DNA of 64,000 nt from Candidatus Babelota bacterium (GTDB lineage Bacteria; Babelota; Babeliae; Babelales; Vermiphilaceae). The stretch is taken from the NCBI GenBank assembly GCA_049325595.1, contig JBMOLF010000012.1, positions 1 through 64,000 of the forward strand. Direction: 5' to 3'. The position numbers were made by a program. Positions 1-18,000 of this stretch are shown piece after piece (within the stretch, counting starts at the first letter, position 1; each line of letters starts with the position of its first letter).

Positions 1-3000
1 ATCCAACAATGGAATCGCGGCATCAAATTCTGCTGGACAAAGACTAAAGATTCTTTTCTGGCTCTTTGCCAATTAGCTTCTGCAATTCATAATTTTAGGC
101 TCGTGGGAATTTTCGGATAAGCTCTTATATTCTTCAGCTTTCTTTTTTTGACGTTCTAAATTAAAGCCATATGCGGTTAACATATTTTTAGCATCAGCAT
201 AATTGGAAACATCTCCAGGAAGCACTACCTTGTTTAATGCGCGGTAATTATCATGAATTTTTTTGCATAATTGAGTATCTTTGTCCATGGCAAAAGTAAT
301 AGCGGGTAGACACAATGCTAGCATGAGAACTTTTTTCATCTCTTTCTCCTTAAGTAACATTTGTTGCGGCATATTTATAGCGCAGATAAAAAGTTTGCTC
401 GGTAGCCTACTATAGCTTGATTTGTTTATCAAATAATTTTTTGTTACCCAACTCTATGATCTGCTTTTATATAAATTTTATTATCAAAAAGTGTGCGTAT
501 AAAAAATGAGGAGGGTTTAATGAAATTAATTGATCCATTGTTTAAAAATTTAAGCCTGGAGTTTAAAAAGAAACTTAAAAAATCGGCTCCTGCATTTATA
601 AAACCAATGTTGGCAACGTTGACCAAAGATTATTTTTCAAGCAAAGAATGGATTTATGAACATAAGTTTGATGGCGTGCGTTGCATAGTAATAAAAAAGG
701 GTGATAAGGTTTCTCTTTTTAGTCGTAATCACAATTCTCTTAATGAAGAGTATCCAGAAATAGTGGCTGCTTTTGAAAAACAAAAAGCGACTGATTTTGT
801 AGTTGATGGTGAAATTGTAGCCGTGAATAAAAAAGGAATATCAGATTTTCAAATGCTGCAGGGCCGTATGAACTTAAAAGATCCACACCGTATTGCGCGA
901 GATTTAAAATTGTTACCGGTGTACATTCATATATTTGATGTGCTATATGCCCATGGCTATGATGTTATGCATCTGCCACTTCTTGTGCGAAAAAAAATTT
1001 TAAAAAAATTATTAGCATATACCAAAATTGTTAAATATACCGATCATAAGACAGGTGATGGCATAACATATTATAAATATGCATGTAAAAAGGGATGGGA
1101 AGGGCTTATTGCCAAAAAAGCCGATAGTACCTATGTGCAAAAACGTTCTCGAGAGTGGCTTAAATTTAAATGTGGCCAAGGACAAGAATTAGTAATTGGT
1201 GGATATACCGAGCCACGTGGTTCGCGTACCGATTTTGGCGCACTTTTAGTTGGGTATTATGATGGTGATCAATTTAAATATGCTGGTAAGGTAGGAACCG
1301 GCTATTCGCAAGAAACGTTGCAAGAACTTGGCAGAAAAATGCGCGCACTCGAAATAAAAAAATGCCCTTTTGTCGATTATGACGGCATTTCAAAAAACGT
1401 GCATTGGATAAAACCAAAATTGGTTGCTGAATTTCAATTTGCACAATGGACAGCTGGTGGCAAATTGCGCGTAGGGCGCTACAAAGGGCTGCGTGAAGAT
1501 AAAAAAGCTAAAGATGTGGTTAAAGAAATTCCAAAATAATGCAGAGAAGAAATTTTTAAAATAAAAAAATCTTGTTGTCTACCTTTTATCGTGGTATAAC
1601 ACTCTTCATTGCAAAAAAACGTTAAAAGGTAATACATCAATGATTTTCAACAAAAAACGTTCTGTTTTGTTGAGCAGTTTGCTCATTCTTTTTTTTATTC
1701 AATCAACTCAGATATTTTCAATGGCCCAGGTTTTAACCCAAACATGGGTTACCTATTTGGCGCCTGCTCTTGGACATTTGGCTATGGCATTAGGTGTTGC
1801 TTTTTCAAAAAATCGCACTGATTCTGCGGCCTTAGATTCATTAAATCAATATGTTCATCAAATTGCACAGCAGCAACAGGCAACACAACAACCAGAACAA
1901 ATAACTAATCCTGCATCAATTAGTCAAGGTGCTGCTCGATCAATTGAAGTGGTTCAAGCAGTGTCGCAGCCTATTGCCACTAATTTGCCAGCAGTAGAAG
2001 GAATTGAATCGGGTGGAATGCCCGGCATTGCACCTGGTGCTATCTCGTGCCCGGGAGAAAAAATCAAGATTATAACTCCTGATCAAATGATGACCCTTAC
2101 AAAAATATTAACTGATGCAGTAAAACCACGCATTAAAGTTGTGCCACAAGAGCAAGGTTTTTTAGCAATACTTGGACAGCAAGCACATTTTGCTAATAAA
2201 TATAAGCCACAAAGCTTGTGGACTACCAATAACTCAATCCCCGGTGTTACGCGCTATCAACATGAATCGGGTCTTTTTGCACAAGTAGAAGCAAAAATAC
2301 CTCAATATAATCTTGGCCATGCATTGTATTGCCAGCAAGCACAATCTGCGTACCGACATTTTGCCTTAGTAAGAACATCACCGGAATATGTTCATTATAT
2401 ACGTCAACGTCTCGATCAGGTGCTGCAAACAACTATCAAATTTTCAAGTGCATCAATAACTGATCGAGTACGTGCCTTTTTTGAACTAAATGCATCGCAT
2501 GATTCATGGTGGGTGCAAGGAAAAATCGATCCTTTGGTGCGAGATATAAACAATTTTGCAACGTTGGGTGATTATGAATTAACTTCAGTAAATTTTCAGC
2601 ACAATTTGCATGGCATTGTCACCAATTATTTAAAAGATATTGGCAATAAAAGCGATGTAAGCGGCTTGGTTAAAACTCTTGGACTCTCTGATCAAGGGAG
2701 TGAAAGTTGGACGTCGTCTATTTATAGATTTGCACGCAATGCTACCCATTGGTATCCAAACCAAGAAAAGGTTTTTGCACATCCCACCAATCAAAAATTA
2801 TTAAGGTTAATTGATGCCTGTGATCGTTATGATATGACACAAGTGCAAAATATTATGACCGAGTTGGCAGACAATCACCTAGGGCAACAAATCTACAAAG
2901 AATTTTGCGATCAGTATCATAACATGCTTTATACCAAAGAAGGAATTTATCGATTATATGAAAATGACCCTGTTTGGCAAAAGTTATCGCTCGATCAAAA

Positions 3001-15000: not shown

Positions 15001-18000
15001 CCTTCCTTGTTGTTAATTAATTCTGAAAATGTATGATTTTAATTTATCTTTTGTTGTTTGAGGTAATTCTTTATATACGTGATAGGCAAGGGAAGTAACC
15101 GTTGCGGTAATGCCTATTACACTTGCCCACCAGCCAAGGCGGGCGTTTGAAAGATTAATTTTTTCTAAAGCTTCTCTTCGTTTTTCTCGTTCATCTTTTT
15201 CGTTAGTGATTTTTTGTACTTTGCGATGTGTTTTGAGTGAGTCTTGTACTATTGATTCAAAGCTTTTATGGTGTCGACTGGTAAGTTTAGCTGCGGTGAC
15301 CAGAAGATCTTCTAGTGCAGCGTGGTTAAAGCCATGTGTTTTTTTTGCCAGCGCTAATTGTTTATCTTTGGGTAAATCAAATGCTAATTTGGTGCAATAA
15401 AAATCTATAATTGCTCTGCGGCTTGCAAGATCGGGAAGCTGTACTTCAACCAGTTTGCACCGGCCAGCGCGAATAAGTGCAGGATCTAATTTTTGTTCGT
15501 GATTGGTCGCACCGATAATAATTAATGGTATTTCACTGGGGATTGACGAAATTTGTGCAATCAGTTTATCAAGGGTTCTAATTTCGTATTGTGAGCCATT
15601 TGCTTCGGTGCTGCTGCGGGTGCCCACTGCTTCAATTTCATCAATAAAAATGATAACGGGCATAAAAACGGCTAATTCATAGGCGCGTTTAAAAAGCCGA
15701 TCAAGTCGTTCTGGTCCGGTGCCGATGTAAGGCCCTTCAAAATCAGAACCTGCTATGGCAAGACAAATACCGCCTACTTGGCCAGCTAATGCCCGAGCAA
15801 AGGTAGATTTACCTGTTCCGGGCGGACCATAAAAAATATATCCACGTTTGCCAGGGTTGGTAATGGGATCTTTAAGAAACTCAACAATTTCTTGTAGTTC
15901 AGAAGGTAAACTTCCGGCTAAGTCGTCTAGGGTAATGTGGGAATCTGAATATTCTACCCATTTTTGATAATAAGCATCATCTTGTGCTATGCAAAAAAAG
16001 CTAAAAAAACCGCTAAAATAAAGCAAAAATCTTAATTTTATTGCATGCATGTAAATGTCTCCAGAAGCTGATATACGTAAGTTGTCGAAATGAAAAAGAA
16101 GTATAGCTACTGCTCAAAAACATGCAATCTTTTTTTTAATTTAGTTATAACTGAAAAAATTAGTTTTTCAGGTGCCAAAGTAGCGGTCACCAAAATCACC
16201 TAAGCCCGGGACAATAAATTTTGAGCTATTGAGTTGTGAATCGGTAACACCAAGAACAAACGTAATGTAAGGGAATTTGTAGCGAATAGCATCTAGGCCT
16301 TCGGGGGCGCAAAGCATACTCACGTATATTATTTGCTGTTGGATAATGCCATTGTCTGTTAACCGTGTAAGCAATTCTATACCAGTACCGCCAGTTGCGA
16401 TCATGGGATCAAGGATAATAATGCACTGATTTTCATGTAACTGAGGTAAATTGCAGTAATACCAATGCGCTTGCGCAGTAATTTCATCTCTTTTTAGGCC
16501 AACAACACCAACGGTTGCCTGTGGTAGGTACTGTAAAAATATTGGTAACATTGCCATGCCAGAACGCAAAATAGGAACGAGTACTATTTCTTGGTCAAGT
16601 ACGGTACCAATGGTGGGCGCATTAGGTGTTTTTATTGGTAGTTCTTTGGTTTTTAAGCGGGCTAATGTTTCGTAAGCAAGCAAATGAGAAAGTTTGTCTG
16701 CTGCGTGTCTGAATGATTGAATTGATGTTTTTTCATCCCGAAGGGTAGTTATATACAATATTTTGGGATCAATCACGTGTTTTCCTTTTTATTATTTTAC
16801 CGTAAAAAAGTTTACTTATGTTATTCAATATTTTTAGCGGATTATTTTTTTCTGAGCGATATGGGCTTATAGAAACGAGCAACGTCAAGAAAAATAGTTC
16901 TAATAGTGGGGTTGTGATGATTTTTAATTTCTTGAAGCTCTTGACTTGAGAGTTTTTTGTATACTTCATAAGGGAAATTATAGTGCAAGTCTTGATTGCA
17001 TTTCAAAATCGTTTCAATGGTATTTACATCTTGATGTTCAAGTGCAAATTCCAATAGTGTTTGTTGGTGGGCATTTTTTAAATCTAGAACATTTATTTTT
17101 TTGCGGGCAAGTTCAAGAAGAACCGATTTAAACATATGTGTTAATGGTGCTGAACCAGAATTGGTAAGGTTTTTTTCTTGTATTTTTTGGATGATCATCC
17201 AAGGAATAGCTGTCAAGTGTTCTTTGTCGCTGATTTGTTTTATTAATTGTTTTATATATAGATCTTTATGTGGCTTTAGATATCTTTTTTTTGAAAAATA
17301 AGCTTTGATTGCTTTTGAAAGTTTAACCCCTATTTCTTCAGCTGAGTCTGAATCTTCGTCGTCTTCAATAATCACCGTTGCTTGTTGAGATTTTGCAACC
17401 TGGTCTGATGCGTTATTTCTGTTATTAAGATGGGTAAAAGCATGTTTATTAAAATAGGCAATAATTTTACGATCATAAAAATTATAGGGAAATGGTTCAA
17501 CTGGTCTTGGCTTATTTAATTCCATGGTAAAAGATAGGCAATTAACTAACCATAAACAAATGCATAATGTTAATAAACTGTTTTTCATTTCCGATTTCTC
17601 CCCATGTCGGTCTAAAATATAATACTATATTTTGCTCGAACTAATTAAGATAAAGATAATATCAAAAAAGGAGTCTTTTCATGATATTTAACGATCGAAT
17701 AGATGCAGGAAATAAACTTGCCCAGCATTTGATATCATATAAAAATAATCCTGCTGTTGTTGTTGTCGCATTGCCAAGAGGGGGTGTTATTGTAGCTAAA
17801 GAAATTGCTTCTCTATTAAATGCTCCGCTTGATATTGTAGTTACCCGAAAAATAGGCTTACCATTTATGCCCGAACTTGCTGTTGGCGCAGTAAGCCAAG
17901 ATGGGTCCTATTTTTTAGATAAACAAATAATGAAGCAACTAGCAGTAAGAAAAGATGAACTTTTAGACACTATCGATCTTGAGCGAAAAGAAATTAATCG

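Follow-up and report, generated by a model that had tools for sequence, protein, structure and literature searches.

What do AAA ATPases with signal-like N-termini do beside a toxin cassette in a Dependentiae bacterium infecting amoebae? We analyzed a 64,000-nt stretch of contig JBMOLF010000012.1 of this Candidatus Babelota bacterium (hereafter, the window), which encodes three AAA ATPases (PF00004), six small paralogs, one EndoU toxin (1167 aa) and seven immunity-like paralogs. We tentatively interpret the locus, at somewhat less than an even chance, as an extracytoplasmic, lineage-specific accessory module of a polymorphic toxin system. An earlier note on this DNA had proposed an extracytoplasmic machine running on host ATP, an interpretation that is partly supported overall. 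The features of the locus are as follows.

493..1539, plus strand: ATP-dependent DNA ligase (DNA_ligase_A_M, E 5e-38), a flank gene outside the module
1640-5143, plus strand: EndoU toxin, 1167 aa (Pfam EndoU_bacteria)
5144-8953, plus strand: immunity-like paralogs, all seven, 144-149 aa (translations)
5144..5581, plus strand: probable cognate immunity protein, 145 aa (by position; no Pfam family)
5891..8953, plus strand: six further immunity-like paralogs, 144-149 aa (translations), at 5891-6328, 6424-6858, 6863-7312, 7620-8054, 8056-8499 and 8504-8953
8981..12779, minus strand: small-protein family, six paralogs, 183-203 aa (family profile), at 8981-9532, 9556-10167, 10326-10895, 10892-11494, 11608-12189 and 12186-12779
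12799-13986, minus strand: AAA1, 395 aa (PF00004, E 6.9e-23)
14030-14989, minus strand: AAA2, 319 aa (PF00004, E 3.2e-22)
15013-16050, minus strand: AAA3, 345 aa (PF00004, E 2.7e-29)

The window toxin opens with a signal-like segment; it also has a further hydrophobic stretch, a ∼950-aa scaffold without a known family and, at the C-terminus, an EndoU RNase domain (EndoU_bacteria, residues 1045-1160, E 3e-14). The scaffold is common to three other proteins (50-61% identity), and one of these three, P0261, carries an Ntox21 tip (E 9.1e-26) in place of EndoU. With EndoU and Ntox21 tips found on one and the same scaffold, the large protein is, as judged from its sequence, a true polymorphic toxin. 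The genome encodes two EndoU toxins, on C12 (the contig of the window, E 3e-14) and on C23 (E 3.5e-14). Thus, the EndoU tips reported earlier were recovered, whereas a reported PD-(D/E)xK-like tip was unconfirmed, the toxin tip on C1 having no match in Pfam.

The first immunity-like gene starts (5144) one base past the toxin stop codon, and its 145-aa product is the probable cognate immunity protein. It is 38-44% identical to the six downstream paralogs, which are 51-92% identical to each other. A signal-like N-terminus is absent from all seven proteins, and the two that were tested matched no Pfam family. An immunity-like array beside the toxin had been described before; in the window it indeed holds seven 144-149-aa paralogs, compared with a single gene in the same-genus relative G246. 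A similar architecture is described in passages of a review of polymorphic toxin systems (Zhang et al. 2012, PMC3482391): the toxin has a signal peptide, a conserved scaffold and a variable C-terminal toxin domain, and its gene is directly followed by an immunity gene, with more immunity paralogs arrayed nearby. The toxin and antidote genes beside the AAA genes are swappable cassettes.

AAA proteins with a hydrophobic N-terminus number ten in this genome (three on C12, two on C1, and one each on C9, C10, C11, C15 and C23), in agreement with the earlier note, and all of them match PF00004. The nine short proteins are without an M41 protease domain, as had been claimed, and the 928-aa protein on C15 retains a Peptidase_M41 remnant (E 1e-7). 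Walker B (DE) is present in eight of the ten, as reported, with AAA2 (IEN) and the C10 protein (DD) as exceptions, but Walker A (GxxxxGK[ST]) is found in nine rather than eight, the exception being C10. AAA1 combines a signal-like N-terminus with YYxxWxE, Walker A GPAGNGKS and Walker B IDE, followed by a long helix and a Gly/Ala-rich hydrophobic tail that matches no Pfam family (AF2 model, pLDDT 72; helix 267-336). AAA2 also starts in a signal-like way; the Walker B of its AAA module is degenerate (IEN), which probably makes the protein non-catalytic, and a hydrophobicity scan found no C-terminal hydrophobic segment in it. In AAA3, a signal-like N-terminus and YYQKWVE precede a complete module with GPPGTGKS, IDE, the pore loop GPYIGTGP and LDPALIRAGR, after which come a coiled coil and, at the C-terminus, a moderately hydrophobic segment, GWWASVIGITATVTSL. 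Only seven AAA3 orthologues with at least 53% identity (53-71%) were found among 5.8 billion clusters, and both hydrophobic ends are kept in all seven. The C-terminal hydrophobic segment of the AAA proteins is absent, besides AAA2, from C9, G232, G231 and G255_431, and the charges flanking it are uninformative as to topology.

The AAA proteins split into two clades, neither of which keeps the protease domain, and Group I adjoins FtsH in the neighbor-joining tree. The best single-domain PDB matches of AAA3 are i-AAA 5ubv (E 2.4e-34) and FtsH 2ce7 (E 2.8e-34), and its best NCBIfam match is FtsH_fam at 152.7 bits, far under the cut-off of 600 bits. The classical AAA clade is common to these proteins and bacterial FtsH, and the true FtsH of this genome aligns across the whole module; the AAA proteins differ from it by being without a protease domain, the periplasmic FtsH_ext and a second helix before the AAA module. 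In the proposed model, the protease-less AAA proteins would descend from FtsH. They could also be i-AAA-type chaperones serving envelope quality control in general, with the protease lost and no specific toxin tie, expanded in a parasite exporting 40% of its proteome. This would agree with the M41 remnant, with the position of Group I, with the AAA loci that have no toxin (C9, C10, C11 and C15), and with an expansion of ATP-dependent Zn proteases mentioned in passages of the Babela paper (PMC4378268). However, we regard this explanation as highly unlikely: the distribution is too narrow, given the few AAA3 orthologues and the presence of the partner small-protein family in 13 of 261 Dependentiae genomes, and one would not expect a housekeeping chaperone to share operons with toxin cassettes.

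Signal-like N-termini were judged by the charge and hydrophobicity heuristic of this analysis, without a trained predictor. The AAA N-termini begin with K/R, followed by a hydrophobic core 11-17 residues long and then a neutral or acidic stretch; the hydrophobic start is present in all ten AAA proteins and in every aligned AAA protein of the relatives. The N-terminal flank is more positively charged than the C-terminal flank in seven of nine AAA proteins, with two ties and no reversed case. For these seven, the N-terminus is predicted to lie inside and the ATPase outside, a topology that by analogy matches mitochondrial i-AAA Yme1. The bias therefore argues against the ATPase lying inside on an uncleaved anchor, a caveat raised in the earlier note. 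The claim of an extracytoplasmic location is thus favored by the charge bias and by the N-segment kept in relatives, but weakened by the fact that 493 of 1218 ORFs of this genome (40%) pass the same heuristic. Normally cytoplasmic enzymes with a signal-like start here include two MutS-like proteins and one uridine-kinase-family protein. At least one ORF passing the heuristic, a GlmU-like gene, was probably called too long.

With an uncleaved anchor and the N-terminus outside, the AAA ring would lie in the cytoplasm next to the inner membrane, in the manner of FtsH, Msp1 or Bcs1, and would feed or extract the toxin through a small-protein channel, forming a dedicated toxin exporter on imported ATP. 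ATP is certainly present in the cytoplasm, and the ∼15 residues between the N-terminal hydrophobic segment and the AAA module resemble the similarly short spacing in membrane-anchored AAA dislocases. The invariant aromatic motif YYxxW directly after the N-terminal helix resembles a membrane-interface belt and fits a retained, uncleaved anchor, and the K/R-rich hairpin flanks of the small proteins fit cytoplasmic termini. Nevertheless, this arrangement appears unlikely, as the charge bias is opposite to it in seven of nine AAA proteins and supports it in none, and a Sec-type signal is already present on the toxin itself. Moreover, helix 1 of the FtsH of this genome has the same charge pattern as the AAA N-segments, and helix 1 of FtsH proteins in general runs N-in. 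On the summed Hessa scale over 19 residues, the AAA N-segments (1.4 to 7.6) are less hydrophobic than both FtsH helices (0.3 and -3.8).

YME1L is described in passages of two papers as a membrane-anchored AAA active in the intermembrane space (PMC5095350, PMC3496608). It resembles the predicted arrangement in its FtsH-type AAA module, its one N-terminal helix anchor, and its work in a periplasm-equivalent compartment whose ATP comes from the surrounding cytoplasm; in addition, the i-AAA ATPase domain is the structure (5ubv) best matched by AAA3. The present proteins differ in that the nine short ones have no M41 domain, they belong to a bacterium, not an organelle, many carry another hydrophobic segment at the C-terminus, and their topology is predicted only. 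No bacterial AAA acting outside the cytoplasm is known, and a literature phrase search returned one annotation, in a table, only; this counts against the preferred reading.

The small proteins matched nothing in Pfam and NCBIfam, and according to their sequences constitute a real, so far unnamed family that is new here. A profile search of 1.84 billion clusters gave 133 cluster representatives, and this genome has 12 members at five loci (six on C12, three on C23, and one each on C11, C1 and C17, the last cut by the contig end). The six window paralogs are 18-54% identical. Besides its signal-like N-terminus, each protein has a helical domain, a long helical hairpin and, at the C-terminus, a conserved helix (RD..ML..LE); in an AF2 model (pLDDT 87.9) the hairpin comprises helices 93-127 and 131-192, with two moderately hydrophobic segments at its tip, and it can sit in a membrane. 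These segments and the AAA C-terminal segments have a median hydrophobicity of 2.9, versus 1.3 for the polytopic proteins of this genome. K/R-rich flanks lie outside the hairpin and its loop is neutral; these charges contradict the topology expected from a Sec signal in the bacterium's own inner membrane, which counts against the preferred reading, as does the 40% of ORFs passing the heuristic.

The best VIA-align Z-scores of the small-protein model (Shrub/Snf7 10.1, XaxA 9.9, PspA 9.3, AhlC 9.1) tie with F-BAR, HlyD and designed hairpins and are below the level that the tool's notes set for a helical match to signify more than a shared arrangement. A long alpha-hairpin encoded beside an AAA recalls ESCRT-III/PspA/Vipp1 with Vps4-type AAA proteins, and several paralogs in tandem recall ClyA-type and tripartite pore-forming toxins. 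No sequence similarity of the small proteins to ESCRT-III/PspA/Vipp1 or ClyA-type toxins was found, nor an MIT domain on the AAA proteins.

The earlier note had paired each AAA with a small protein. Family members are adjacent to AAA genes at three of six loci (C12, C23 and C11), but the C1 member lies 10 kb away from the AAA pair, and the AAA neighbors on C9 (169 aa) and C10 (172 aa) were missed by the family profile even at E≤1. By eye, the latter two resemble small-family proteins. The pairing, presented as new, is not new in kind: passages of a paper on Babela massiliensis, from the same phylum, describe AAA-Ulp1 proteins and a neighboring membrane-protein family (Pagnier et al. 2015, PMC4378268). 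In contrast to these, no Ulp1/C48 domain was detected by Pfam in the AAA proteins of this genome, and a link to toxin-immunity cassettes is unmentioned in those passages.

The proposed link to small proteins and toxins turned out stronger than the earlier note knew. The order AAA / small protein / secreted protein of 886-1172 aa / small cytoplasmic ORFs is found again in five further genomes from four genera, and part of these loci are tight same-strand operons. In G232, all four elements (AAA, small protein, large signal-bearing protein, small ORFs) are encoded on the same strand, separated by 32, 27 and 4 nt; G260, G231 and G255 have the same order, and G246 and the window have a convergent version. 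Furthermore, the AAA clades track the toxin scaffold families. Among 15 loci fetched around small-family matches in relatives, an AAA is found within 3 kb at eight, and a protein of at least 886 aa directly beside the small-family gene at six. New here are also this recurrent order with toxins, the EndoU/Ntox21 polymorphism on one scaffold and the two protease-less AAA clades. The parts also occur separately, which, together with the AAA C-terminal segment missing in several proteins, counts against the preferred reading: AAA and small pairs without a toxin are found on C11 and at locus L023 of G246, a small protein and toxin without an AAA at locus L030 of G231, and no AAA lies near the single small gene at locus L022 of G246, even across the genome's origin.

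Alternatively, the AAA and hairpin proteins might be host-directed effectors, passing through Sec and then a secretin pathway to act in the amoeba cytoplasm or host membranes, e.g. the mitochondria wrapping these bacteria, the toxins adjoining only since variable host-interaction genes share islands. Published readings for Dependentiae, in the passages concerned, assign proteins with signals to the host. For Babela, this reading covers nine signal-bearing AAA-Ulp1 proteins and the ankyrin proteins, type II secretion being the sole system identified (PMC4378268). Chromulinavorax has predicted signals in 44% of CDS and a replication body in the host cytoplasm, wrapped by a mitochondrion. The same-genus isolate Noda2021 is ringed by altered mitochondria. 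The two secretins of this genome and its signal-like MutS-like and uridine-kinase-family proteins are consistent with such export, and the moderate hydrophobicity of the hairpin and AAA C-terminal segments would allow passage through Sec. We still find this explanation rather doubtful. Island co-location fails to explain the 4-32 nt same-strand gaps in G232 and the recurrence in four genera, leaves the tracking of scaffold families by AAA clades unexplained, and immunity arrays point to bacterial, not host, targets, in agreement with remarks on amoeba symbionts in the review (PMC3482391).

Under the preferred reading of an accessory toxin module, a Sec-targeted toxin of ∼130 kDa with an exchangeable C-terminal tip (EndoU here) would be neutralized by cytoplasmic immunity proteins, and the AAA and small proteins would both carry Sec-type N-terminal signals with the N-terminus inside. 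The AAA ring would act outside the cytoplasm, where it might be anchored on the outer side of the inner membrane, as Yme1 is, or be set free beyond that membrane. Host ATP would fuel the ring, as such ATP must cross the periplasm to the TLC carriers anyway; TLC ATP/ADP carriers are encoded in the genome, which bears out the earlier description of an ATP-importing parasite. The ring would act on the hairpin proteins and the large toxin, unfolding, extracting or pushing them as they leave the cell or enter a target membrane. The sequences show the domain composition, the protein families, a conserved gene order, toxin polymorphism, and genes for ATP carriers and secretins; we infer that the AAA domain is exported, that the parts touch one another, and which ATP and substrate are used. 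The intact motifs of AAA1 and AAA3, the hydrophobic AAA starts with their charge bias, the conserved order, the clades tracking scaffolds, the EndoU/Ntox21 polymorphism, the TLC carriers and two secretins, and the Yme1 precedent support this reading. If it is true, the locus may encode a toxin-handling machine outside the cytoplasm powered by host ATP.

PTEX HSP101 of Plasmodium and the torsins of the ER lumen are signal-peptide AAA+ ATPases that act beyond a membrane from their site of synthesis, with small membrane partners, and the PTEX ATPase pushes effectors through a pore. The likeness of an AAA+ with a signal peptide beyond the membrane and small membrane partners is an analogy, homology not being claimed; HSP101 and the torsins come from other AAA+ clades (ClpB-type, torsin) and act in secretory pathways of eukaryotes. 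In passages of the polymorphic toxin review, the sole systems with a named AAA+ partner are type VI (ClpV) and PVC (Cdc48-like), both described there as built from phage-tail proteins, and signal-bearing single-module AAA proteins with small hairpin proteins are absent from the trafficking modes listed there (PMC3482391). The DNA ligase gene flanking the module is likewise found beside the toxin at locus L021 of G246, and thus the locus is syntenic between the window and this relative.

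The window lies at the beginning of C12, one of the 24 contigs of the 1.29-Mb genome, and carries near its start a predicted toxin gene, its immunity-like neighbors and a convergent run of AAA ATPase and small hairpin-protein genes.

Genes of the toxin region, in window coordinates
493-1539, plus strand: ATP-dependent DNA ligase, preceding the toxin gene
1640-5143, plus strand: toxin of 1167 aa, with a signal-like start and an EndoU RNase domain in the final 120 residues (Pfam, E 3e-14)
From one base past the toxin stop codon, plus strand: signal-less immunity-like ORF of 145 aa
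5891-8953, plus strand: six further immunity-like paralogs, after the 145-aa ORF
16050-12799, minus strand: three AAA genes in the order AAA3, AAA2, AAA1, opening a nine-gene run
12779-8981, minus strand: six small genes completing the run, which has gaps of -4 to 158 nt and converges on the toxin and immunity-like genes

Four readings of this arrangement were ranked. The leading one, to which we give somewhat less than an even chance, is that an extracytoplasmic module of AAA and hairpin proteins serves the adjacent polymorphic toxin, in the periplasm or past the outer membrane; we infer the contact between its parts, its substrate and the source of its ATP.

Judged by its position directly downstream of the toxin, the 145-aa ORF is probably the cognate immunity gene. 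The seven immunity-like ORFs share 38-92% mutual identity and include a recent duplication (paralogs 4 and 7 are 92% identical, 3 and 6 are 74% identical); the same-genus relative G246 has a single copy. A Pfam scan assigned the ORFs of this genome and of the relatives to no known immunity family, and NCBIfam had no match for those of the window either. The convergent run combines three old AAA paralogs of 25-30% pairwise identity with six small proteins that are 18-54% identical. Past the AAA genes lie three more signal-like proteins of unassigned function (16842-17588, 18299-19234 and 19235-19942, minus strand), the first two without a family in a Pfam scan; in G246 this position is taken by three other small genes, likewise signal-bearing.

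Toxin-like proteins of 975-1167 aa are encoded on C12, C1 and C23, and Pfam bears out the EndoU toxins claimed in the earlier note, with an EndoU C-terminus in two of the three. The scaffold of the window toxin (residues 60-1000) recurs in three other proteins, of which P0259 and P0260 end in EndoU, while P0261, 56% identical over 74% of the scaffold, ends in Ntox21 (tip E 9.1e-26). One scaffold with EndoU or Ntox21 tips fits the definition of a polymorphic toxin, namely a conserved N-terminal part with a varied C-terminal toxin domain. Other pairs of large proteins have common tips alone or common central parts alone. The tips of six large proteins had no Pfam match, and querying the Atlas with the toxin scaffold yielded nothing usable. 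A literature query on both terms found no publication pairing Dependentiae with 'polymorphic toxin', and the accessible part of the 2012 polymorphic toxin survey (Zhang et al., PMC3482391) names AAA+ partners for type VI and PVC systems only, describing these as built from phage-tail proteins.

Homology searches of the genome's ORFs recovered all ten signal-like AAA ATPases that had been claimed: three on C12, two on C1, one each on C9, C10, C11 and C23, and a 928-aa protein on C15. Each carries PF00004, with scores of 35.8-102.7 bits against a gathering threshold of 21.2 and E-values of 7e-23 to 3e-29 for the window AAAs. The genome's remaining AAA+ proteins, among them FtsH, two Lon, ClpB and RuvB, are without a hydrophobic signal-like start. 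Walker A is present in nine of the ten (the C10 protein is without GK[ST]) and the Walker B DE in eight. AAA1 and AAA3 possess Walker A, Walker B, the aromatic pore loop and the arginines of the second region of homology. Walker B of AAA2 reads IEN; a dead Walker B there and in one G246 paralog would fit mixed rings.

The nine short AAAs gave no Pfam match to the M41 zinc protease (PF01434), and the 928-aa protein has only a 36-residue remnant of it. AAA3 scores 152.7 bits on FtsH_fam (TIGR01241), for which the cut-off is 600. A single hydrophobic segment precedes the AAA module, which begins about 15-60 residues later, and the FtsH layout of two helices and a periplasmic domain is missing. 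Many of the AAAs, not all, have a moderately hydrophobic segment past the lid and a coiled coil; in the AF2 model of AAA1 (pLDDT 72) the AAA fold is accompanied by a C-terminal helix of 70 residues. A separate scan of the Gly/Ala-rich AAA1 tail (its last 113 residues) matched no Pfam family at E<=0.1, glycine-zipper profiles included. We discounted the basic tail at the C-terminus of AAA3 as a sign of a C-in anchor, the flanks being about equal in 24 proteins (+0 to +3 before, -1 to +4 after). The 928-aa protein (C15:204786-207572; locus L040, 1787-4573) consists of a signal-like start, an unassigned region of about 440 residues, the AAA module and the M41 remnant, a make-up that resembles an intermediate stage from FtsH to the short AAAs; directly upstream of its gene there is a 289-aa ORF with weak AAA likeness.

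The second reading, the published one, is that such AAAs would be host effectors; we consider it unlikely. The Babela AAA-Ulp1 family is marked by a permuted Ulp1/C48 peptidase domain fused to the AAA, and ESCRT-III proteins by a partner AAA with a MIT domain. Apart from the M41 remnant, neither C48 nor any other peptidase family was detected in the window AAAs (E<=0.01) or in six others (E<=0.1), the C10 AAA being scanned by Pfam at E<=0.001 only, and MIT families were absent from the Pfam output for the AAAs. A strongly derived Ulp1/C48 domain could evade Pfam.

N-termini were judged by our own feature heuristic (core length, flank charge, hydrophobicity). A Sec signal has a positive n-region, an h-region of 7-15 hydrophobic residues and a polar c-region with small residues at -3 and -1. 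By this measure the n- and h-regions of the AAAs fit the pattern: the hydrophobic cores span 11-17 residues, positive charge is higher in the N-flank than in the 20 residues past the core in seven of nine AAAs (equal in two, less in none), and over 19 residues the segments are less hydrophobic (1.4 to 7.6) than both FtsH helices (0.3 and -3.8). The segment is kept in all seven AAA3 orthologues and in every aligned relative's AAA, and Shine-Dalgarno-like motifs precede the start codons. Together, core length, flank charge, hydrophobicity, conservation and these motifs argue for an N-in Sec signal, which could be either cleaved or kept as an anchor. By eye, a -3/-1 cleavage site is plausible in AAA1, AAA3 and the C23 protein and not in several others, and no lipoprotein signal was seen. 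In one AAA clade an invariant YYxxWxE directly follows the N-segment and would suit a retained anchor. The third reading, a motor facing the cytoplasm, we regard as improbable.

The same heuristic flags 493 of the 1218 ORFs of the genome (40%), a share close to the 44% signal-bearing proteins reported for Chromulinavorax in the accessible part of the source. A GlmU-like gene in the window (28747-30303, minus strand; NTP_transferase and hexapeptide repeats) has a 35-residue signal-like extension in its longest ORF, with Met 36 at the usual GlmU start. Its signal is probably an over-long ORF call, a warning against signals read from longest ORFs. Two MutS-like proteins with signal-like N-termini (C11:37187-38959, L122; C15:95834-97534, L123; MutS_III and MutS_V, E 1e-17 to 6e-22) look like further export-tagged P-loop ATPases of normally cytoplasmic kind. 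A protein of the uridine-kinase/PRK family (C15:130764-131546, L124; E 1.7e-16) also begins signal-like, without an internal Met ahead of the P-loop; in a parasite that imports nucleotides, it might serve to phosphorylate nucleosides on the far side of the inner membrane, outside the cytoplasm.

An alignment and a neighbor-joining tree (260 columns, no support values) divide the AAAs into two clades. Group I contains the three window AAAs, the C9 protein and four proteins from G246, and adjoins FtsH. Group II contains the C11, C1 and C23 proteins and the toxin-linked AAAs of the relatives G232, G231, G260 and G255, and has LDE and a single SRF arginine. The clades track the toxin scaffold families, as would be expected if AAA and toxin were inherited as one module. 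In the PDB, AAA3 has its best single-domain matches in an i-AAA ATPase domain and in FtsH. Its seven orthologues are 53-71% identical, followed only by generic FtsH and Cdc48 modules (<=43%). A metagenome scan with these orthologues returned 80 loci, all FtsH-like genes at <=39% identity; thus, no orthologue is among them and they add no gene context.

Gene order was analyzed at 15 loci fetched and annotated around small-family matches in ten relatives. An AAA lies within 3 kb at eight of these, and at six a signal-bearing protein of 886-1172 aa adjoins the small gene and is followed by one to three signal-less ORFs of about 125-260 aa. The G232 locus has the four genes on one strand (gaps of 32, 27 and 4 nt), and the order is repeated in G260, G231 and G255. 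G246 (strain Noda2021) is syntenic with the window, its AAA and small genes being interleaved. The order has exceptions: AAA-small pairs occur without a toxin (C11; G246 locus L023), a small gene occurs with a toxin and without an AAA (locus L030), several occur alone, and a scan of G246 locus L022, across the origin included, found no AAA beside its small gene. The toxin on C23 and the two ORFs after it (region 20850-25315) are absent from the otherwise syntenic L023, where the AAA abuts a conserved 633-aa gene; the toxin cassette has come or gone as one block. The fourth reading, an envelope chaperone independent of toxins, we hold to be very improbable.

A profile of the small family found 12 members at five loci in the genome. 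On C12, C23 and C11 they are immediate neighbors of AAAs, on C1 the distance is 10 kb, and on C17 a member is cut by the contig end; the small neighbors on C9 and C10 are alike by eye and undetected by the profile. The statement that each AAA is paired with a small protein is therefore true for half of the loci. The family occurs in 13 of 261 Dependentiae genomes (besides this one, 11 belong to the same taxonomic family) and in 6 of 145 genera. Its 133 cluster representatives are 100-291 aa long and include no fusions; Pfam had nothing for any of 30 sampled members, and NCBIfam names nothing above its cut-offs. An AF2 model (pLDDT 87.9) has three parts: an N-terminal helix that stands free, a small helical domain, and a long hairpin made by helices 93-127 and 131-192. 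Foldseek found no PDB match to it at E<=0.001, and VIA-align gave tied helical hairpins only (ESCRT-III, PspA/Vipp1, F-BAR, XaxA/AhlC, IpaB), the Z of 9.2-10.1 for ESCRT-III, PspA and Vipp1 being tied with unrelated hairpins. Two hydrophobic stretches near the hairpin tip are among the least hydrophobic quarter of the genome's membrane segments. The K/R-rich outer flanks and neutral loop of the hairpin misfit the topology expected from a Sec signal if the protein stayed in the inner membrane of the bacterium itself; this charge pattern would suit insertion into some other membrane after release from that one.

In textbook bacteria there is no ATP outside the cytoplasm, so envelope machines take their energy from inside. 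An energy parasite with ATP carriers that draw on the periplasm could break this rule; that such a compartment can be the workplace of an FtsH relative is shown by mitochondria. The genome encodes TLC ATP/ADP carriers and two secretins, and the accessible parts of the sources place relatives in the host cytoplasm, wrapped by mitochondria; with TLC carriers and this habitat, ATP must cross the periplasm. Yme1 is an FtsH relative with one N-in helix that works in the mitochondrial compartment equivalent to the periplasm; the accessible parts of PMC5095350 and PMC3496608 describe it as membrane-anchored and active in the intermembrane space. The topology of this i-AAA is a single N-terminal N-in helix with the AAA outside; for the AAAs here, the heuristic gives an N-in charge bias in seven of nine, with two ties. 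The ranking of the four readings follows from the carriers, the secretins, the passage of ATP through the periplasm and the Yme1 precedent. A wider proposal, which we find distinctly unlikely, is that in bacteria bathed in host ATP the periplasm would be energized like the mitochondrial intermembrane space, and i-AAA-like motors without a protease, seated on the outside of the inner membrane, would form, with the hairpin proteins, an ATP-driven machine for export or delivery of large polymorphic toxins. If true, this mode of secretion would have no known counterpart in free-living bacteria.

Should the AAAs be active beyond the cytoplasm, they would be the first such case in bacteria, and would help explain how Dependentiae, with only Sec and a secretin pathway at their disposal, transport toxins of 130 kDa and signal-bearing proteins by the hundred. 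On a cautious reading three results hold: a new protein family, a conserved four-part toxin operon and bona fide polymorphic toxins in Dependentiae. Signal-bearing AAAs and a neighboring predicted membrane-protein family were already described for Babela in 2015 (Pagnier et al., PMC4378268, in its accessible part); that family is possibly the same as the small family, and the additional data of the paper may bear on this. What the present analysis adds is the small family, now defined and with its spread traced, the division of the AAAs into two clades, the conserved operon with polymorphic toxin and putative immunity genes, and the comparison with i-AAA Yme1.

Two further observations concern small-family loci. 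Beside the AAA3 orthologue in G246, the small gene (L021, 9168-9693) is split into pieces of 111 and 77 aa with one TAA inside the match, and is probably a pseudogene. In G260, two genes away from a small-family gene that stands alone, a signal-bearing WD40 protein is encoded (L026, 7303-8649); the end of this protein, GCATLGTYLYYK, recalls by eye those of AAA1 (GAGVGYYK) and of a 387-aa AAA of G246 (GFGLSYLK), and a common C-terminal tag on the three proteins is possible.
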